Shown in pieces: positions 1-56,625 of a DNA stretch of 64,000 nucleotides. The DNA comes from Escherichia coli (GTDB taxonomy: Bacteria > Pseudomonadota > Gammaproteobacteria > Enterobacterales > Enterobacteriaceae): assembly GCF_003334315.1 (NCBI RefSeq), contig NZ_QOWR01000011.1; one strand, written 5' to 3'. A model generated the notes under the pieces. The model was not told the origin of the DNA. It was given only the letters and a program-made list of their open reading frames with translations, and did no database searches. The position numbers and the translations under genes were made by a program. The first letter of the stretch is position 1, and every line of letters begins with the position of its first letter.

Positions 1-1190
<1,190 letters not shown>

Positions 1191-1289
1191 TATTGCTGAC
1201 ACGGTTTTCCCCTCACCCTAACCCTCTCCCCAGAGGGGCGAGGGGACCGACCGAGCGCCTTTTTGACTCTGTACACGGTTAACACTTTG

Positions 1290-1325
1290 CCGGATGCGGC
1301 GTGAACGCCTGATCCGGCCTACGGT
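1290..1325. repeat. REP (repetitive extragenic palindrome) unit in pstA-pstB spacer; additional GC-rich inverted repeat at about 1205-1250
   Basis: gccggatgcggcgtgaacgcctgatccggcctac matches the canonical REP consensus; upstream ccctctccccagaggggcgagggg is an imperfect palindrome. Confidence 0.6.
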
Positions 1326-1333
1326 AAGCCTGA

Positions 1334-2146
<813 letters not shown>

Positions 2147-2160
2147 TTCAGGAGTGCGTT

Positions 2161-2886
2161 ATGGACAGTCTCAATCTTAATAAACATATTTCCGGCCAGT
2201 TCAACGCCGAACTGGAAAGTATCCGCACGCAGGTGATGACCATGGGCGGCATGGTGGAGCAGCAGCTTTCTGATGCAATCACCGCGATGCATAACCAGGA
2301 CAGCGATCTGGCGAAGCGCGTCATCGAAGGCGACAAGAACGTCAACATGATGGAAGTGGCGATCGATGAAGCCTGCGTGCGCATTATCGCCAAACGTCAG
2401 CCGACGGCGAGCGACCTGCGACTGGTTATGGTGATCAGTAAAACCATTGCCGAGCTGGAGCGTATTGGCGACGTGGCGGACAAAATCTGCCGTACTGCGC
2501 TGGAGAAATTCTCCCAGCAGCATCAGCCGTTGCTGGTAAGTCTGGAGTCGCTGGGCCGTCATACCATCCAGATGCTGCACGACGTGCTGGACGCGTTCGC
2601 GCGGATGGACATTGACGAAGCGGTACGTATTTATCGTGAAGATAAAAAAGTCGATCAGGAATACGAAGGTATTGTTCGTCAACTGATGACCTACATGATG
2701 GAAGATTCGCGTACCATTCCGAGCGTACTTACTGCGCTGTTCTGCGCGCGTTCTATCGAACGTATTGGCGACCGCTGCCAGAATATTTGTGAGTTTATCT
2801 TCTACTACGTGAAGGGGCAGGATTTCCGTCACGTCGGTGGCGATGAGCTGGATAAACTGCTGGCGGGGAAAGATAGCGACAAATAA
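2161..2886 (+). CDS. phoU: Phosphate signalling complex protein PhoU
   Basis: 241 aa from ATG 2161 ([14 protein letters not shown]...); the ORF-track start at 2143 is an upstream extension; duplicated PhoU-domain motifs. Confidence 0.92.
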
Positions 2887-2896
2887 TTCACCAGAC

Positions 2897-2930
2897 AAAT
2901 CCCAATAACTTAATTATTGGGATTTGTTAT
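2897..2930 (+). terminator. Rho-independent terminator of the pst-phoU operon
   Basis: Inverted repeat aaatcccaataa/ttattgggattt followed by a T/A-rich tract. Confidence 0.6.
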
Positions 2931-2939
2931 ATATAACTT

Positions 2940-3080
2940 TATAAATTCCTAAAATTACACAAAGTTAATAACTGCGAGCATGGTCATATTTTTATCAATA
3001 GCGCATTGCTATTTTCTCTGCACGCAATTAAATTAATTTCCGAACCTGGATGTTCGTTATAAAAACCATTAATAAATGAC
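2940..3080 (+). promoter_or_regulatory. bgl promoter region: AT-rich upstream silencer and weak CAP-like site
   Basis: Very AT-rich tract; TGCGAgcatggTCATA (2974-2989) resembles the CAP half-site arrangement TGTGA-N6-TCACA; positioned upstream of the bglG leader. Confidence 0.45.
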
Positions 3081-3081
3081 T

Positions 3082-7431
<4,350 letters not shown>

Positions 7432-13133: not shown

Positions 13134-14471
13134 ATGAGTCAACAACACACAACCCAGGCTTCTGGCCAGGGGATGCTGGAACGCGTGTTTAAACTGCGCG
13201 AACATGGCACGACGGCACGGACCGAAGTGATCGCTGGTTTTACCACCTTCCTGACGATGGTTTACATCGTTTTTGTTAACCCGCAAATTCTTGGCGTTGC
13301 TGGCATGGATACCAGCGCCGTCTTCGTCACTACCTGTCTGATTGCTGCATTCGGCAGTATTATGATGGGACTGTTTGCTAACCTGCCAGTTGCACTGGCA
13401 CCCGCTATGGGCCTGAATGCGTTCTTCGCTTTTGTCGTTGTGCAGGCGATGGGCTTGCCGTGGCAGGTCGGGATGGGCGCAATCTTCTGGGGCGCGATAG
13501 GTCTGCTGTTACTGACGATTTTCCGCGTTCGCTACTGGATGATTGCCAACATTCCGGTGAGTCTGCGTGTGGGCATCACCAGCGGTATCGGTCTGTTCAT
13601 TGGTATGATGGGACTGAAGAATGCAGGTGTGATTGTCGCTAACCCGGAAACGCTGGTCAGCATCGGTAATCTGACTTCTCACAGCGTGCTGCTGGGGATC
13701 CTCGGCTTCTTCATCATCGCCATTCTGGCCTCGCGCAACATTCACGCGGCGGTGCTGGTTTCCATCGTGGTGACAACGCTGCTGGGCTGGATGCTGGGTG
13801 ATGTCCACTATAATGGCATCGTTTCTGCGCCGCCGAGCGTAATGACTGTCGTGGGTCATGTAGATTTAGCCGGTTCGTTTAACCTCGGCCTGGCAGGGGT
13901 GATTTTCTCTTTCATGCTGGTCAACCTGTTTGACTCCTCCGGTACGCTGATTGGCGTGACCGATAAAGCAGGTCTGGCGGATGAGAAGGGTAAATTCCCG
14001 CGCATGAAGCAGGCGCTATATGTCGACAGTATCTCTTCTGTTACCGGTTCGTTTATCGGTACTTCTTCTGTTACGGCGTATATCGAGTCTTCTTCCGGCG
14101 TTTCTGTTGGTGGTCGTACCGGTCTGACGGCAGTCGTTGTTGGTCTGCTGTTCCTGCTGGTTATCTTTCTGTCGCCGCTGGCGGGGATGGTGCCAGGCTA
14201 CGCTGCAGCTGGTGCGCTGATTTACGTTGGCGTGCTGATGACTTCCAGTCTGGCACGCGTGAACTGGCAGGATCTTACTGAATCTGTTCCGGCGTTTATT
14301 ACCGCCGTGATGATGCCGTTCAGCTTTTCGATTACCGAAGGTATTGCGCTGGGCTTTATCTCCTACTGCGTAATGAAAATCGGTACCGGACGTCTGCGTG
14401 ATCTAAGCCCGTGCGTAATCATCGTTGCGCTGCTGTTTATCCTGAAGATTGTGTTTATCGACGCTCACTAA
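13134..14471 (+). CDS. adeP: Adenine permease (NCS2/AzgA family)
   Basis: 445-aa polytopic membrane ORF; divergent from yieH. Confidence 0.88.
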   Translation: MSQQHTTQASGQGMLERVFKLREHGTTARTEVIAGFTTFLTMVYIVFVNPQILGVAGMDTSAVFVTTCLIAAFGSIMMGLFANLPVALAPAMGLNAFFAFVVVQAMGLPWQVGMGAIFWGAIGLLLLTIFRVRYWMIANIPVSLRVGITSGIGLFIGMMGLKNAGVIVANPETLVSIGNLTSHSVLLGILGFFIIAILASRNIHAAVLVSIVVTTLLGWMLGDVHYNGIVSAPPSVMTVVGHVDLAGSFNLGLAGVIFSFMLVNLFDSSGTLIGVTDKAGLADEKGKFPRMKQALYVDSISSVTGSFIGTSSVTAYIESSSGVSVGGRTGLTAVVVGLLFLLVIFLSPLAGMVPGYAAAGALIYVGVLMTSSLARVNWQDLTESVPAFITAVMMPFSFSITEGIALGFISYCVMKIGTGRLRDLSPCVIIVALLFILKIVFIDAH

Positions 14472-16018: not shown

Positions 16019-16978
16019 TTATGCCATCGACGCGTAAAGGTTTTTAATGGTTTCCCGTAACCAGACGATCTTCGGATTATGGCTGTTCCGTTTATGCCAC
16101 AGCAGGGTAAAAGGAACTTCCAGCTTTTTTTGCTGGCTTTCGTCAAACGGGAGAGGAAGAGCAACCAACGGCAGTTGATGGAGTTGATTGTAGTACTGAC
16201 AGTAGCGCGGCGCGGTCGCCAGTAGCAGATTGTCGGGTTGCGCTGCCATAAACAGTGACTGCTCAAATTCCGGCAGGCTCATAGCAATCGTGCGTTCGCG
16301 CCCCAGCTCCTGTAACACATTGTCCAGCGCCCAGGTGTCGCTCTGTTCCCAGCAAATGCTGATATGCGGATAACGTAAAAAGGTGTCCAGATTCCACGTT
16401 TCATGCAGTGCCGGATGATCTTTGCGTAACCAGACGCAGGGTACATCACTAAACAGCACTTCATAATCAATGGCTAACGGTAGCGAGCTTAACAGCTCCC
16501 GCGAGCGAGGATGGCTTTCGCGACCGGAAAAACCAATATCCACTTCACCACGAGTAATGGCATCTAAGGAATCGTAATCCCAGTTACGTAGTTTGATGGT
16601 CGCCTGCGGGTAACGTTGGTAGATCCGTTTCGACAGCGCATTAAGCATGATCATCATCAGCGGCGATTCCGCCGCCAACTCAAACTTCAGGCCGCGCGGT
16701 GTCTGGTGGTGCGGTTTATCCAGCAGCAGATTGCTCATTTGCATCTATTCCGCCAGATTTTGCTCCATGCTGACCATCAGCGGTGTGGGCGACAGACCCA
16801 GCGGTGAGTTCACAAAGAGCGGGTCGTCAAACCACGCTCTTAACTTTGCCAGCGACTTACTCACCGCCGAAGGTGTCACGTTTATCCGCTTCGCCGCTTT
16901 GGTTACGCTGCGCTCCTGCATCAGCAGTTGCAGACAAAGCAGCAGATTGAGATCAAGCGTGGTGATGGATTTCTTCAT
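16019..16978 (-). pseudogene. yidZ: LysR-family transcriptional regulator YidZ interrupted by an in-frame TAG (amber) between the HTH and effector domains
   Basis: ORF-track pieces 16745..16987 (HTH: ...[16 protein letters not shown]...) and 16019..16744 (substrate-binding domain) are in the same frame, separated only by TAG at 16745-16747 (minus strand); combined length matches the expected 319 aa. Confidence 0.7.
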
Positions 16979-26013: not shown

Positions 26014-27417
26014 GTGTCACTTTCGCTTTGGCAGCAGTGTCTTGCCCGATTGCAGGATGAGTTACCAGCCACAGAATTCAGTATGTGGATACGCCCATTG
26101 CAGGCGGAACTGAGCGATAACACGCTGGCCCTGTACGCGCCAAACCGTTTTGTCCTCGATTGGGTACGGGACAAGTACCTTAATAATATCAATGGACTGC
26201 TAACCAGTTTCTGCGGAGCGGATGCCCCACAGCTGCGTTTTGAAGTCGGCACCAAACCGGTGACGCAAACGCCACAAGCGGCAGTGACGAGCAACGTCGC
26301 GGCCCCTGCACAGGTGGCGCAAACGCAGCCGCAACGTGCTGCGCCTTCTACGCGCTCAGGTTGGGATAACGTCCCGGCCCCGGCAGAACCGACCTATCGT
26401 TCTAACGTAAACGTCAAACACACGTTTGATAACTTCGTTGAAGGTAAATCTAACCAACTGGCGCGCGCGGCGGCTCGCCAGGTGGCGGATAACCCTGGCG
26501 GTGCCTATAACCCGTTGTTCCTTTATGGCGGCACGGGTCTGGGTAAAACTCACCTGCTGCATGCGGTGGGTAACGGCATTATGGCGCGCAAGCCGAATGC
26601 CAAAGTGGTTTATATGCACTCCGAGCGCTTTGTTCAGGACATGGTTAAAGCCCTGCAAAACAACGCGATCGAAGAGTTTAAACGCTACTACCGTTCCGTA
26701 GATGCACTGCTGATCGACGATATTCAGTTTTTTGCTAATAAAGAACGATCTCAGGAAGAGTTTTTCCACACCTTCAACGCCCTGCTGGAAGGTAATCAAC
26801 AGATCATTCTCACCTCGGATCGCTATCCGAAAGAGATCAACGGCGTTGAGGATCGTTTGAAATCCCGCTTCGGTTGGGGACTGACTGTGGCGATCGAACC
26901 GCCAGAGCTGGAAACCCGTGTGGCGATCCTGATGAAAAAGGCCGACGAAAACGACATTCGTTTGCCGGGCGAAGTGGCGTTCTTTATCGCCAAGCGTCTA
27001 CGATCTAACGTACGTGAGCTGGAAGGGGCGCTGAACCGCGTCATTGCCAATGCCAACTTTACCGGACGGGCGATCACCATCGACTTCGTGCGTGAGGCGC
27101 TGCGCGACTTGCTGGCATTGCAGGAAAAACTGGTCACCATCGACAATATTCAGAAGACGGTGGCGGAGTACTACAAGATCAAAGTCGCGGATCTCCTTTC
27201 CAAGCGTCGATCCCGCTCGGTGGCGCGTCCGCGCCAGATGGCGATGGCGCTGGCGAAAGAGCTGACTAACCACAGTCTGCCGGAGATTGGCGATGCGTTT
27301 GGTGGCCGTGACCACACGACGGTGCTTCATGCCTGCCGTAAGATCGAGCAGTTGCGTGAAGAGAGCCACGATATCAAAGAAGATTTTTCAAATTTAATCA
27401 GAACATTGTCATCGTAA
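26014..27417 (+). CDS. dnaA: Chromosomal replication initiator DnaA
   Basis: 467 aa from GTG 26014 ([13 protein letters not shown]...); AAA+ Walker [12 protein letters not shown]; C-terminal DNA-binding domain. Confidence 0.95.
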
Positions 27418-28522: not shown

Positions 28523-32038
<3,516 letters not shown>

Positions 32039-32039
32039 T

Positions 32040-32160
32040 GGCGCTAACCATGCGAGCGTGCCTGATGCGCTACGCTTATCAGGCCTACGAAAATCTTGCA
32101 ATGTATTGAATTTTCATGATTTTGTAGGCCGGATAAGGCGTTCACGCCGCATCCGGCAAG
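32040..32160. repeat. Tandem REP/BIME-like palindromic units downstream of gyrB
   Basis: gcctgatgcgctacgcttatcaggcctac and ggccggataaggcgttcacgccgcatccggc, REP consensus in opposite orientations. Confidence 0.65.
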
Positions 32161-32170
32161 AAGCTATAAG

Positions 32171-32200
32171 AAAAGGGCGGAGATCATCTCCGCCCTTTTT
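32171..32200 (+). terminator. Rho-independent terminator after gyrB
   Basis: aaaagggcggagatcatctccgcccttttt: perfect GC stem with flanking A-run and T-run. Confidence 0.8.
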
Positions 32201-32277
32201 ATTTCTGCAATCCGCAATTATCATCCCGCAAATCTATACTTTTTGGGTCAACACGTAACGCTTTACAGGTGATTATC

Positions 32278-32676
32278 ATGGGGCTTTTTGATGAAGTTGT
32301 CGGTGCCTTTCTGAAAGGCGATGCGGGGAAATATCAGGCTATTTTAAGTTGAGTTGAGGAGCAGGGCGGCATTCAGGTGCTGCTGGAAAAACTGCAAAGT
32401 GGCGGCTTAGGGGCCATTCTCTCAACCTGGCTGAGTAATCAACAGGGCAATCAATCGGTTAGTGGCGAGCAACTGGAATCGGCGCTCGGCACAAATGCGG
32501 TGTCCGATCTCGGGCAAAAACTTGGCGTGGATACCAGTACAGCTTCCAGTTTACTGGCAGAACAATTGCCGAAGATTATTGATGCGCTCTCACCGCAAGG
32601 TGAAGTGTCACCACAAGCCAATAACGATCTGCTTTCCGCAGGCATGGAACTGCTGAAAGGGAAACTCTTCCGCTAA
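32278..32676 (+). pseudogene. yidB: Small DUF937-type protein YidB interrupted by an in-frame TGA at codon 25
   Basis: ATG 32278 MGLFDEVVGAFLKGDAGKYQAILS then TGA (32350-32352), and the same frame continues VEEQGGIQVLLEKLQSGG... to 32676; the ORF track only reports the downstream piece 32377..32676. Confidence 0.65.
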
Positions 32677-32679
32677 GCA

Positions 32680-32722
32680 AAAAGGGAGCACGCAACGCGC
32701 GTTGCATCCCCCTTTTCCCTCG
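32680..32722 (+). terminator. Hairpin with perfect palindrome between yidB and yidA
   Basis: gggagcacgcaacgcgcgttgcatccccc followed by ttttccc. Confidence 0.5.
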
Positions 32723-32790
32723 GGTGTTGTACTGATTTTTGAGCGGAATCGCGTTAGCATGGGTCAGGAACCAATCTACCTGGGGAACTC

Positions 32791-33603
32791 ATGGCTATTA
32801 AACTCATTGCTATCGATATGGATGGCACCCTTCTGCTGCCCGATCACACCATTTCACCCGCCGTTAAAAATGCGATTGCCGCAGCTCGCGCCCGTGGCGT
32901 GAATGTCGTGCTAACGACGGGTCGCCCGTATGCAGGTGTGCACAACTACCTGAAAGAGCTGCATATGGAACAGCCGGGCGACTACTGCATTACTTATAAC
33001 GGCGCGCTGGTACAGAAGGCCGCTGATGGTAGCACCGTGGCGCAAACTGCTCTCAGCTATGACGACTATCGTTTCCTGGAAAAACTCTCTCGCGAAGTCG
33101 GTTCTCATTTCCACGCCCTGGACCGCACCACGCTGTACACCGCCAACCGTGATATCAGCTACTACACGGTGCATGAATCCTTCGTTGCCACCATTCCGCT
33201 GGTGTTCTGCGAAGCGGAGAAAATGGACCCCAATACCCAGTTCCTGAAAGTGATGATGATTGATGAACCCGCCATCCTCGACCAGGCTATCGCGCGTATT
33301 CCGCAGGAAGTGAAAGAGAAATATACCGTGCTGAAAAGTGCGCCGTACTTCCTCGAAATCCTCGATAAACGCGTTAACAAAGGTACGGGGGTGAAATCAC
33401 TGGCCGACGTGTTAGGTATTAAACCGGAAGAAATCATGGCGATTGGCGATCAGGAAAACGATATCGCAATGATTGAATATGCAGGCGTCGGTGTGGCGAT
33501 GGATAACGCTATTCCTTCAGTGAAAGAAGTGGCGAACTTTGTCACCAAATCTAACCTTGAAGATGGCGTGGCGTTTGCTATTGAGAAGTATGTGCTGAAT
33601 TAA
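32791..33603 (+). CDS. yidA: HAD-superfamily sugar phosphatase (Cof subfamily)
   Basis: 270-aa ORF with HAD motif I IAIDMDGTLL. Confidence 0.9.
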   Translation: MAIKLIAIDMDGTLLLPDHTISPAVKNAIAAARARGVNVVLTTGRPYAGVHNYLKELHMEQPGDYCITYNGALVQKAADGSTVAQTALSYDDYRFLEKLSREVGSHFHALDRTTLYTANRDISYYTVHESFVATIPLVFCEAEKMDPNTQFLKVMMIDEPAILDQAIARIPQEVKEKYTVLKSAPYFLEILDKRVNKGTGVKSLADVLGIKPEEIMAIGDQENDIAMIEYAGVGVAMDNAIPSVKEVANFVTKSNLEDGVAFAIEKYVLN

Positions 33604-33610
33604 TCTGTGG

Positions 33611-33641
33611 GCGGGCAAACAGCATAAACGCGTTTGCCCGC
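33611..33641. terminator. Bidirectional terminator hairpin between convergent yidA and yidX
   Basis: gcgggcaaacagcataaacgcgtttgcccgc, a 10-bp perfect stem. Confidence 0.7.
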
Positions 33642-33648
33642 TTACTGA

Positions 33649-34305
33649 TTATTGGTTTACTGCATATACAACCAGAAATTGCAGCGGTGCAGTAATGATG
33701 TCCAGCGTAACAGTCACTGGCAGTAATGCTGCGGAAACACCATCCGGAATGCCTCTGGGTGAATAGTATTCATAAAATCGCACTTTAAATGGATGGTAGA
33801 ACGCCATCACCTTTGAGTAATCCATGTTTTTATTTTTCTCATGGATTGTGCCTTTTAGGTTTTCCAGTGACCTGGTACAGTGTTGAACACCACAGGCAAA
33901 ACCATAATGCGTTGCCAGTGCCTTTTCTTCTTCGTTATTCCAGTAGTAGTAAAGCGATATTGTGCCGGTAAATTTCTTTTTCCCCGCATTTAAAACAAAT
34001 CTTGCGTCATCGGCAACCTGAATATTGTGCCGGTTAAGTGCTGGATCATTGAGCATCTTAACGATGTCATCGGCACCATCAGTGATAAGGTAATCCAGCG
34101 ATTCCCCTACAAAAACATAGCCTTTTGTTCCATTACTATCTTTTGCCTGCGATAGCCCAGTGATGGTGTCTGACTGCGATTGATACTTTCCTGAACTACC
34201 CTTTGCGGTATGGGAAACCAGAGCATACGAGATACAGCCTGAAAGCATCAGCGCCAGTGGGAATAAACCGGCAGCCTTAAAAAATCCCTTAAAATTCAAC
34301 TTCAT
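33649..34305 (-). CDS. yidX: Putative lipoprotein YidX
   Basis: 218 aa from internal Met with lipoprotein signal peptide [24 protein letters not shown] (lipobox LSGC). Confidence 0.75.
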
Positions 34306-34582: not shown

Positions 34583-35272
34583 ATGACTCTCAATAAAACC
34601 GATCGCATTGTCATTACGCTGGGTAAACAGATCGTTCACGGCAAATACGTGCCAGGCTCGCCGCTTCCGGCTGAGGCGGAACTCTGTGAGGAGTTTGCAA
34701 CCTCGCGCAACATCATCCGTGAGGTGTTCCGTTCGCTGATGGCGAAGCGGCTGATTGAAATGAAACGTTATCGCGGGGCGTTTGTGGCACCGCGTAACCA
34801 GTGGAATTACCTCGACACTGACGTACTGCAATGGGTGCTGGAAAATGACTACGACCCACGGCTTATCAGTGCCATGAGCGAAGTGCGAAATCTGGTGGAA
34901 CCGGCGATTGCCCGTTGGGCAGCAGAGCGCGCGACTTCCAGCGATCTGGCGCAGATTGAATCGGCGCTGAACGAGATGATTGCCAACAATCAGGACCGCG
35001 AAGCGTTTAACGAAGCGGATATTCGCTACCACGAGGCGGTGCTGCAGTCGGTGCATAACCCGGTGTTACAGCAACTTAGCATTGCGATCAGTTCGCTGCA
35101 GCGGGCGGTTTTTGAACGAACCTGGATGGGCGATGAGGCCAACATGCCGCAAACGCTCCAGGAACATAAGGCGCTGTTCGATGCGATACGACATCAGGAC
35201 GGCGATGCGGCAGAGCAGGCGGCGCTTACCATGATCGCCAGCTCGACACGAAGGTTAAAGGAAATCACATGA
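34583..35272 (+). CDS. dgoR: GntR/FadR-family repressor of the galactonate operon
   Basis: 229-aa ORF with N-terminal winged-HTH and FadR-type C-terminal domain. Confidence 0.9.
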   Translation: MTLNKTDRIVITLGKQIVHGKYVPGSPLPAEAELCEEFATSRNIIREVFRSLMAKRLIEMKRYRGAFVAPRNQWNYLDTDVLQWVLENDYDPRLISAMSEVRNLVEPAIARWAAERATSSDLAQIESALNEMIANNQDREAFNEADIRYHEAVLQSVHNPVLQQLSIAISSLQRAVFERTWMGDEANMPQTLQEHKALFDAIRHQDGDAAEQAALTMIASSTRRLKEIT

Positions 35273-36147
35273 CAGCTCGCTACATCGCAATTGACTGGGG
35301 ATCGACCAATCTGCGCGCCTGGCTTTATCAGGGCGACCACTGCCTGGAGAGCAGGCAATCAGAAGCAGGCGTCACGCGCCTGAACGGAAAATCTCCGGCT
35401 GCGGTGTTAGCAGAAGTCACGACCGACTGGCGTGAAGAGAAAACGCCAGTGGTAATGGCAGGAATGGTTGGCAGCAACGTCGGCTGGAAAGTTGCACCGT
35501 ATTTATCTGTTCCTGCCTGTTTTTCGTCTATTGGCGAACAATTAACGTCAGTTGGCGACAATATCTGGATTATTCCCGGATTATGCGTCTCTCATGACGA
35601 TAACCACAATGTGATGCGCGGCGAAGAAACACAATTGATCGGCGCGCGAACTCTGGCTCCTTCCTCTCTTTATGTTATGCCCGGTACGCATTGCAAATGG
35701 GTGCAGGCCGATAGCCAGCAAATCAACGATTTTCGCACCGTGATGACCGGTGAATTACATCATTTACTGTTAAATCACTCATTGATTGGCGCAGGTTTGC
35801 CGCCGCAGGAAAACTCTGCCGATGCCTTCGCGGCTGGCCTTGAGCGCGGCCTTAATGCGCCCGCCATATTGCCGCAGCTTTTTGAAGTTCGCGCCTCGCA
35901 TGTGCTGGGAACACTTCCCCGCGAACAGGTCAGCGAATTTCTCTCTGGTTTGTTGATTGGCGCAGAGGTTGCCAGTATGCGCGACTATGTGACCCATCAA
36001 CACGCCATCACCCTTGTCGCCGGAACATCGCTGACCGCGCGCTACCAGCAAGCCTTTCAGGCGATGGGTTGCGACGTGACGGCGGTGGCGGGCGACACGG
36101 CATTTCAGGCTGGTATAAGGAGCATCGCTCATGCAGTGGCAAACTAA
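35269..36147 (+). CDS. dgoK: 2-dehydro-3-deoxygalactonokinase
   Basis: 292-aa ORF; 4-bp overlap with the dgoR stop. Confidence 0.88.
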   Translation: MTARYIAIDWGSTNLRAWLYQGDHCLESRQSEAGVTRLNGKSPAAVLAEVTTDWREEKTPVVMAGMVGSNVGWKVAPYLSVPACFSSIGEQLTSVGDNIWIIPGLCVSHDDNHNVMRGEETQLIGARTLAPSSLYVMPGTHCKWVQADSQQINDFRTVMTGELHHLLLNHSLIGAGLPPQENSADAFAAGLERGLNAPAILPQLFEVRASHVLGTLPREQVSEFLSGLLIGAEVASMRDYVTHQHAITLVAGTSLTARYQQAFQAMGCDVTAVAGDTAFQAGIRSIAHAVAN

Positions 36148-38012: not shown

Positions 38013-39305
38013 ATGGATATCCCCGTTAATGCAGCAAAGCCGGGGCGTCGGCGTTATCTGACGCTGGTGATGATCTTTATTACGGTGGTCATTTGTTATG
38101 TTGACCGCGCTAACCTGGCCGTGGCTTCCGCCCATATTCAGGAAGAGTTCGGCATTACGAAAGCGGAAATGGGCTATGTATTTTCGGCCTTCGCCTGGCT
38201 TTATACGCTATGCCAGATCCCCGGCGGTTGGTTTTTAGATCGCGTAGGTTCTCGCGTGACTTATTTTATTGCGATATTTGGTTGGTCAGTGGCGACTTTA
38301 TTCCAGGGCTTTGCCACGGGATTAATGTCATTAATTGGTCTGCGTGCGATAACCGGTATTTTCGAAGCGCCCGCTTTCCCGACCAATAACCGGATGGTGA
38401 CCAGCTGGTTCCCGGAACATGAACGCGCTTCCGCCGTTGGTTTTTATACGTCTGGTCAGTTTGTCGGTCTGGCGTTTTTGACTCCGCTGCTGATCTGGAT
38501 TCAGGAGATGTTGAGCTGGCACTGGGTGTTCATTGTCACTGGTGGTATCGGCATTATCTGGTCGCTGATTTGGTTTAAGGTTTATCAGCCGCCGCGCCTG
38601 ACCAAAGGTATCAGCAAAGCTGAACTGGATTACATTCGTGATGGCGGCGGTCTGGTGGATGGTGATGCGCCGGTGAAAAAAGAGGCACGTCAGCCGTTAA
38701 CAGCCAAAGACTGGAAGCTGGTGTTCCATCGTAAACTGATCGGCGTTTATCTTGGGCAATTTGCGGTGGCTTCTACACTGTGGTTTTTCTTAACCTGGTT
38801 CCCGAACTATTTAACCCAGGAAAAAGGAATCACGGCGCTGAAAGCAGGCTTTATGACCACGGTGCCATTCCTCGCGGCGTTTGTCGGCGTCCTGCTCTCT
38901 GGCTGGGTCGCGGATCTGCTGGTACGTAAGGGCTTTTCACTGGGCTTTGCGCGTAAAACGCCGATTATCTGCGGCTTGCTGATCTCCACCTGCATTATGG
39001 GCGCTAACTACACTAACGATCCGATGATGATTATGTGCCTGATGGCGCTGGCATTCTTCGGTAACGGTTTTGCTTCGATTACCTGGTCGCTGGTCTCTTC
39101 TCTGGCACCGATGCGCCTGATTGGTTTAACCGGCGGCGTGTTTAACTTCGCCGGTGGTCTGGGCGGCATCACCGTTCCGCTGGTGGTGGGGTACCTGGCG
39201 CAGGGTTACGGTTTCGCACCTGCACTGGTTTATATCTCCGCCGTCGCGTTGATTGGCGCGCTCTCTTACATCCTGCTGGTGGGCGATGTGAAGCGCGTTG
39301 GCTAA
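38013..39305 (+). CDS. dgoT: D-galactonate:H+ symporter (MFS, anion:cation symporter family)
   Basis: 430 aa from internal Met ([22 protein letters not shown]...); the ORF-track start 37968 is an extension. Confidence 0.88.
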
Positions 39306-45131: not shown

Positions 45132-45844
45132 CTCTTTTCCGGGTGGAGTCGCCGTAAATGGTACTCCACCTGGTATTCGCTGGCATTTCTGAACATCACT
45201 GAATAATTCAAAAACTCCCCGCTCTCGCTATATGACAACGAGGTGATCCGCAGCAGTGGCGTGTGTTCCGCTACCTTCATTTGCCGCGCCAGCAGTCTAT
45301 CGGCGAGCACTGGCGTCAGGCTTTCATAATTACCGCCAATCAAAATCCCGCACTCTTGTTCAATATATTCAAACTTCGACCCTTCCAGATGTTGCAGCGA
45401 AAGATTACGGAACAGTTTTACCGGCATATAGCTGTCTTCCAGCATCAGCGGTTTCCCTTCCACAAAACGAACGCGACGGGAGAAGTAGATCTGCTCGTTG
45501 ATTTGAATCCGTAACTGGCTGGCAATGGCCGGAGGCGCAGGCATGATTTCAAAAATCAGCACCTGGCTGGTGACCGTTTTTCCCTGCCGTTTTAACACCT
45601 CCACCAGTCCGGTCAGGCTGGCGGTTTGATGCAGCACATCTTTGCGCACCAGGTAAGTGCCGCTGCCGTGGCGGCGGACCACCAGCCCCCACGCTACCAG
45701 CAGGTCAATCGCTTTACGGATGGTCATCCGGGATACTGCAAATTCTTCCGCCAACTTTTTTTCACCGGGAAGAAGGCTGTTTAGCGTGAAATCTGCGGAA
45801 TTAAGTCGAATTCTTAACCGCTCCGCAATGCTTTTGTAGATCAT
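45128..45844 (-). CDS. yidP: GntR-family transcriptional regulator (HutC subfamily, UTRA effector domain)
   Basis: 238 aa from internal Met ([16 protein letters not shown]...), wHTH motif [22 protein letters not shown]; ORF-track upstream extension rejected. Confidence 0.82.
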
Positions 45845-46139
45845 CTCTAGATCTCTTTTTTGCCTGCAAGCCCGGGTAATGCGCCCACAAGTTCTGCTTA
45901 ATCGATTGAAAAAACATCTTTTTTTTAAAGATGTGTTCGATGCTGTGTACCAGTGCTCACAGATGTCTACTTTTTCGCGAAAACGTAGATCTCTACCGCC
46001 CAACGAAAAGCATGAAAGCGATCACGAATCCCATTGGGTCGTCATGTTCTGTCGATCGCATCTTCCTATCCTCGCTCCAGGCCTGCCGCATAACCAATCA
46101 GGCTTCCTACTTACAGAATTGAGAAAAGAGGATGTGGAA

Positions 46140-49490
<3,351 letters not shown>

Positions 49491-56444: not shown

Positions 56445-56550
56445 ATATTTGGACAAAACGCAAACTGTGATCGATACTCAACTATGCACTAAATACGTCA
56501 AAATTCGTGCCGAAATTGCGCGTTCTGCGCGGAACACGTATACTTTCAGT

Positions 56551-56625
56551 GTTGACATAATACAGTGTGCTTTGCGGTTACCAGCCGCAGGCGACTGACG
56601 AAACCTCGCTCCGGCGGGGTTTTTT
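56551..56625 (+). ncRNA. istR: IstR-1 antitoxin sRNA (about 75 nt); the longer SOS-induced IstR-2 would start upstream near the LexA box
   Basis: TATACT -10 at 56539-56544; 5' segment gttgacataatacagtgtgct complementary to tisAB mRNA (plus-strand 56293-56313); ends in GC hairpin plus U-run (56600-56625). Confidence 0.65.

Follow-up and report, generated by a model that had tools for sequence, protein, structure and literature searches.

Intact YidB is a 132-amino acid helical protein (PDB 1Z67) of the family described by Pfam PF20159 (YidB; related to DUF937) and by the NCBIfam equivalog NF008509. In E. coli K-12, yidB (b3698) is part of a gyrB–yidB–yidA locus, and its position between gyrB and yidA is conserved in Escherichia. 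The YidB protein has been detected in strain MG1655, in which it is induced by enrofloxacin, a fluoroquinolone; a ΔyidB mutant of MG1655 is viable and showed no marked phenotype there (PMC12287860). In addition, an antisense RNA from the gyrB–yidB spacer is reported to cover the 5′UTR of yidB (PMC7967276). A literature search found no paper that gives YidB a function. Frames that continue past an in-frame UGA are also found in bacterial selenoprotein genes of the fdhF type, where the UGA is accompanied by a SECIS element.

Here, we describe the yidB allele carried by a stretch of 64,000 nucleotides of E. coli DNA (the window), which comes from the dnaA–gyrB side of the chromosomal origin. The gene order in the window is gyrB (29624–32038, plus strand), yidB (32278–32676, plus), yidA (32791–33603, plus), yidX (minus), and dgoR (plus), so that yidB occupies the same place between gyrB and yidA as in K-12. 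The window allele differs from that of K-12 at one base. The elements of the locus are as follows:

32278–32676, plus strand: yidB pseudogene of 132 codons and a stop, broken at codon 25; the same sequence is entered in RefSeq as ‘YidB family protein, pseudo, internal stop’
32350–32352, plus strand: premature opal stop TGA at codon 25; the mutated base, 32352, is A here and G in the intact allele
32267–32272, plus strand: native Shine–Dalgarno sequence AGGTGA, 5 nt upstream of ATG 32278 and the same as in K-12
32278–32352, plus strand: leftover N-terminal open reading frame (from the ORF reading), the 24-residue peptide MGLFDEVVGAFLKGDAGKYQAILS and its stop
32377–32676, plus strand: candidate re-initiation ORF of 99 amino acids from GTG (codon 34), in the same frame as yidB
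32356–32361, plus strand: Shine–Dalgarno-like GAGGAG within yidB, with a spacing of 9 nt to the in-frame ATT 32371 downstream and of 15 nt to GTG 32377
32692–32705: perfect palindrome GCAACGCGCGTTGC in the yidB–yidA gap, read from the sequence as a terminator-like hairpin with the flanks AAAAGGG and CCCCCTTTT

Read from ATG 32278, the frame has 24 sense codons, the TGA, another 107 sense codons, and TAA at 32674–32676, which makes 132 sense positions and a stop when codon 25 is counted. A reading of this DNA made from the letters and their open reading frames (hereafter, the sequence-only reading) had placed an in-frame TGA at codon 25 and a possible GTG restart at 32377; the TGA is confirmed, and the GTG does open the 99-residue ORF. 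The duplex energy of the native Shine–Dalgarno sequence with the anti-Shine–Dalgarno sequence is −3.8 kcal/mol. A promoter and terminator scan of positions 32030–32800 returned no sigma-70 match upstream of yidB on the plus strand and called the palindrome at 32692–32705 a terminator on the minus strand only. The gyrB–yidB spacer also holds REP-type elements at 32081–32123 (minus) and 32127–32201 (plus), and two Rfam families match there: ES036 (CssrF) exceeds its gathering score (44.8 against 37.6 bits), and naRNA4 falls short of its own (47.1 against 59.5 bits).

Once Trp25 is restored, the protein of the window matches NF008509 with 288.5 bits (cut-off 243) over residues 1–132 of 132, in agreement with the 132-codon full-length protein that the sequence-only reading had expected. 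It also matches Pfam PF20159 (E = 1.2e-17) and aligns over all 132 of 132 residues with PDB 1Z67 (E = 3.9e-77), which is S4005 of Shigella flexneri and is identical at 129 of the 132 residues. Given the matches to NF008509 (end to end), PF20159, and 1Z67 (all residues), the two halves are one interrupted gene and not a chance pair of ORFs. The residue affected by the stop is strictly conserved. When 30 full-length homologues with 53–97% identity, from Escherichia to Klebsiella, Mixta, Franconibacter, and Jejubacter, are aligned, Trp25 is invariant in 30/30, as are M1, D5, G9, Q20, Q29, G30, and G31 in the N-terminal third. YidB has only two tryptophans, W25 and W51, and both are invariant in the 30 homologues. 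In an AlphaFold model (pLDDT 69, moderate confidence), used for helix boundaries only, Trp25 lies within helix 2 (residues 15–28). Members of the YidB family are recognized by an unbroken frame with the N-terminal helices and Trp25; the window copy is broken by TGA at codon 25, and the locus is therefore classed as a pseudogene of the family.

The stop is the result of a single substitution. Across 2.9 kb (window positions 30878–33777), an ungapped comparison with a K-12-type strain, whose intact yidB product is WP_000522208.1, gave one difference, G to A at 32352, which changes TGG (Trp) into TGA. The sequence-only reading had interpreted the TGA as a premature stop one G-to-A change away from TGG, and the alignment with this intact allele bears it out. 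Codon 25 is also TGG in strain 25-07233. (For that strain, RefSeq starts the intact yidB 42 nt further upstream, giving 441 nt and WP_463725820.1; the start region is identical to that of K-12, which points to an inconsistency of the RefSeq annotation.) To count the alleles, exact matches of 61-mers centered on base 32352 were searched in 5,426 complete E. coli genomes: the form with TGA occurs in 84 of them (~1.5%) and the form with TGG in 3,072. The sense codon is thus ancestral, given TGG in the close alleles and in these 3,072 genomes and Trp in the 30 homologues. Over a stretch of 521 bp that contains the TGA, the window and at least 40 complete genomes are 100% identical. Every carrier that was opened (CP53, 97.3, NCTC9699, S171-1, 027_SK3, and 2017.17.03CC) has yidB annotated by PGAP as a pseudogene with an internal stop. 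The RefSeq pseudogenes EAH50_RS02160 (CP53), EL118_RS00025 (NCTC9699), and HZS87_RS15255 (S171-1) have nucleotides identical to those of the window over the whole gene and its flanks; these three strains differ from the window by a few private SNPs elsewhere and by none at yidB. The carriers were obtained from animals (pigs, poultry, ducks, farmed frogs, cattle, and a pangolin), from humans, and from river water and wastewater, those opened coming from China, Viet Nam, the USA, and Switzerland, and NCTC9699 is a culture-collection strain. Since the identical allele is present in 84 complete genomes, in the PGAP records, and on at least 1,000 public contigs, and is linked to other SNPs, it is real, heritable, and already catalogued by PGAP as a pseudogene. 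It is an established polymorphism and not a fresh lesion.

The history of the allele was approached with a SNP matrix over ~37 kb (window positions 14403–51605) that compares the window and four TGA carriers with three strains in which codon 25 is TGG. One group of sites is fully linked with the TGA allele in this matrix:

38678–38717, plus strand: three synonymous SNPs in dgoT (38678 A, 38687 A, and 38717 G)

These SNPs are present in the window and the four carriers and absent from 3/3 TGG strains. Because they are common to all compared carriers and missing from the non-carriers, a single origin of the TGA allele is supported; for the window and four carriers against three non-carriers, it is well supported but not proven. 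Over the ~37 kb, the window has 4 differences from S171-1 and 6 from 2017.17.03CC. The carriers 97.3 and 027_SK3 have 76–78 differing sites, in blocks at 35191–35550 and 45685–48205, and clustering in blocks, as seen in these alignments, is the usual signature of recombination. Moreover, all four gametes are seen between sites 28824–30079 and 32352, which implies that the flanks have recombined since the TGA mutation. A search with 25 kb does not discriminate as to clonality, as many TGG strains also show ~100.0% identity there. Three public contigs from sublineages of the TGA allele have one extra missense change each downstream of the stop, G57S (32446) or E67K (32476); these were found via protein clusters and are uninformative on dN/dS.

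Loss of yidB is not confined to this allele. Although yidB is a core gene, full length in 5424 of 5426 complete genomes, other disruptions of it were found in E. coli:

Equivalent of 32428–32430 (base 32429), plus strand: W51*, TGG to TAG, in DXMF6-3R; its exact 61-mer is found in 30/5426 complete genomes
Codon 29, plus strand: Q29*, CAG to TAG, in a divergent O157-like allele (GCA_054591135.1)
Codons 3–4, plus strand: frameshift by one additional T in a T5 run, in the draft assembly of O157:H- H 2687, where a homopolymer error is possible
Near codon 27: IS1B insertion that splits yidB, in EC529

Several carriers of W51* are among the closest relatives of the window haplotype (EC-107, PK8241, 30EVA1, TB354, the Z1323CEC strains, and NCTC9080). 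Like W25*, W51* is a G-to-A change in a Trp codon within the same haplotype family, but it is a different event at a different position. The 99-residue downstream ORF, which W25* leaves open, is lost in W51* and in the IS1 allele. Thus, yidB has been inactivated repeatedly and independently in E. coli, by at least four or five knockouts.

Taken together, the TGA allele is with high confidence a lineage-specific loss-of-function allele of yidB, that is, a pseudogene, for which we infer both the loss of the protein and its neutrality. A single G-to-A transition at 32352 has changed codon 25, invariably Trp in the homologues, from TGG to the opal codon TGA, so that translation from the native start would stop after 24 residues and full-length YidB would not be made in normal amounts. 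The mutation probably arose once, in a phylogroup-A-like haplotype family near K-12 in this region, and would then have been inherited by many animal, human, and water strains while being recombined onto partly different flanking haplotypes. Its persistence would follow from the dispensability of yidB, a gene that has been lost independently several times in E. coli.

Other explanations leave YidB with some activity. The part of the gene downstream of the stop could encode a functional protein if ribosomes that terminate at TGA 32350 re-initiated at GTG 32377 and produced an N-terminally truncated YidB of 99 residues that keeps some function. Termination–reinitiation is well established in bacteria over distances as short as this, and the GTG is in frame and only 25 nt past the stop. 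The strong Shine–Dalgarno-like GAGGAG (duplex energy −8.0 to −8.5 kcal/mol) lies upstream of it, and a weaker G-rich match of −6.6 kcal/mol is found 5–7 nt 5′ of the GTG; the ORF is routinely predicted by gene callers, and no fewer than 1,000 public contigs carry exactly its product (for example, AUY89592.1 and BBJ89468.1). To judge from these motifs, re-initiation at GTG 32377 is mechanistically possible. However, the 15-nt spacer between GAGGAG and GTG is well past the usual optimum, and the product would be without residues 1–33, which contain the conserved helices 1–2 of the model and eight invariant residues (the seven listed above and W25). The sequence-only reading had counted conserved truncated homologues starting at this GTG as evidence against a premature stop; none was found outside E. 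coli, where all homologues are full length with a conserved N-terminus, and most homologues have Ala, not Val, at codon 34. The 99-residue forms occur only in E. coli genomes in which the 5′ part of yidB is disrupted. W51* and the IS1 insertion remove this ORF as well, yet they are tolerated. A truncated YidB that still functions is therefore very unlikely. Full-length protein could instead be supplied by a leaky UGA, read by near-cognate Trp-tRNATrp, in which case the gene would be down-tuned and not dead. No stop codon of E. coli leaks more than UGA. UGA readthrough, in which Trp-tRNATrp competes with RF2, amounts to ~2% at 37°C and ~4% at 25°C in K-12 reporters (PMC10570021). As the inserted residue would be the Trp of the intact protein, the TGA allele may be strongly hypomorphic and not null; in addition, the yidB ORF of the five carriers examined has no second disabling mutation. 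K-12 has a weak RF2 variant, and readthrough figures from K-12 overestimate those of natural isolates. A trace of authentic YidB made by basal readthrough is likely, but nothing points above the basal level: the fold after the stop is within the range of shuffled controls and has no Rfam match, trpT is wild type in the carrier, and the stop is not conserved, the TGA allele being a minority of 1.5%. Sublineages have acquired further missense changes downstream (the G57S and E67K noted above), and knockouts of yidB by TAG and by IS1 are likewise tolerated. On these grounds, it is likewise very unlikely that leakage supplies functional YidB.

Programmed recoding, with the TGA specifying selenocysteine or being read by a dedicated suppressor, would fit a stop that is TGA and a frame that stays open afterward, the features shared with the fdhF-type genes. 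In contrast to those genes, yidB is without a SECIS element, and its ancestral codon is Trp. The sequence-only reading had considered selenocysteine unlikely since no SECIS-like hairpin was evident, and the finer analysis agrees with it: neither SECIS nor any other Rfam family is found at 32000–32900 even at E ≤ 10, and the 71 nt from the UGA have a minimum free energy of −21.5, where shuffled sequences average −20.6 (z = −0.33). The hairpin located 11 nt 3′ of the TGA is no more stable than the shuffles and occurs equally in TGG alleles. Among the 30 homologues, Trp is invariant and neither Cys nor Sec is found at the homologous position, and in the other species examined there is no stop at codon 25. 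On the side of the decoding machinery, trpT of S171-1 (one carrier, trpT only) is identical to that of the K-12-type strain, with anticodon CCA, and the 64,000-nt window has no tRNA genes. Both a selenocysteine or other structured recoding signal (by the Rfam scan and the folding against shuffles) and a suppressor tRNA (by the trpT comparison) were rejected, which leaves programmed recoding with a negligible probability. An error of sequencing or assembly at 32352 is conceivable for a single-base difference, the more so as the same window has two private disruptions shared by no other genome (yidZ W78* and a frameshift in bglB, described below). Nevertheless, the TGA is linked to other SNPs, and an identical allele recurs on the public contigs and in 84 complete genomes that are independent of one another, with several countries, hosts, and sequencing projects represented. 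Sequencing error was rejected on the strength of the 84 identical genomes, and its probability is practically nil.

It is also unlikely that either the UGA allele acts as a leaky hypomorph that still supplies a few per cent of genuine protein with Trp25, or the loss of yidB has been repeatedly favored, and not just tolerated, in some lineages. For favored loss speak the two Trp-to-stop alleles within one haplotype family, which reach 84 and 30 of the 5426 genomes and include many livestock-associated isolates. The position of yidB next to gyrB and the induction of its product by a fluoroquinolone in MG1655 point in the same direction (PMC12287860). For the pseudogene reading, the yidB TGA is a routine case that the NCBI pipeline has flagged in dozens of RefSeq genomes, and TGA at codon 25 can serve as a clean SNP marker of one sublineage of E. 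coli. Only one point is of mild interest, namely that an uncharacterized core gene is inactivated repeatedly in nature: together, the W25*, W51*, Q29*, IS1, and frameshift alleles indicate that yidB is dispensable in nature, which narrows the hypotheses about its function. A practical caution is that the downstream 99-residue ORF should not be annotated as a protein. Its product is named inconsistently in GenBank and UniRef, and one of the names, ‘radical SAM domain-containing protein’, seems to be an annotation error; yidF, the genuine radical SAM gene, is ~22 kb away from this ORF. A 99-residue ORF of a metagenome scaffold was also considered as a disruption of yidB and was rejected as an artefact of an N-gap.

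Other genes elsewhere in the window are disrupted in it or in compared genomes. The gene for the LysR-type regulator YidZ (16019–16978, minus strand) has the change W78*, TGG to TAG at 16745–16747, with T at 16746, where 7/7 compared genomes have C. The exact 61-mer with yidZ W78* is found in 0/5426 complete genomes; the change is therefore private to the source strain, without an independent assembly behind it. The bglB ORF (6038–7276, plus strand) is missing one base at ~7245 relative to 2017.17.03CC, which leaves 412 amino acids instead of 464; the missing base reflects a private frameshift or, alternatively, an error in a homopolymer, in an operon (bgl) that is cryptic anyway. A glv-like gene annotated as ‘PTS sugar transporter subunit IIB’ (~46140–47756, plus strand) is intact in S171-1 and 2017.17.03CC, the strains nearest to the window, and has an internal stop in the K-12-type strain and DXMF6-3R. 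The adjoining gene for a family-4 glycosyl hydrolase (~47756–48570, plus strand) is frameshifted in every genome examined. The window also contains three known RNAs, each in its expected place:

56496–56625, plus strand: istR, next to tisB
26524–26604, minus strand: AsdA, antisense to dnaA
42255–42327, plus strand: ROSE_2 thermometer, 5′ of ibpA
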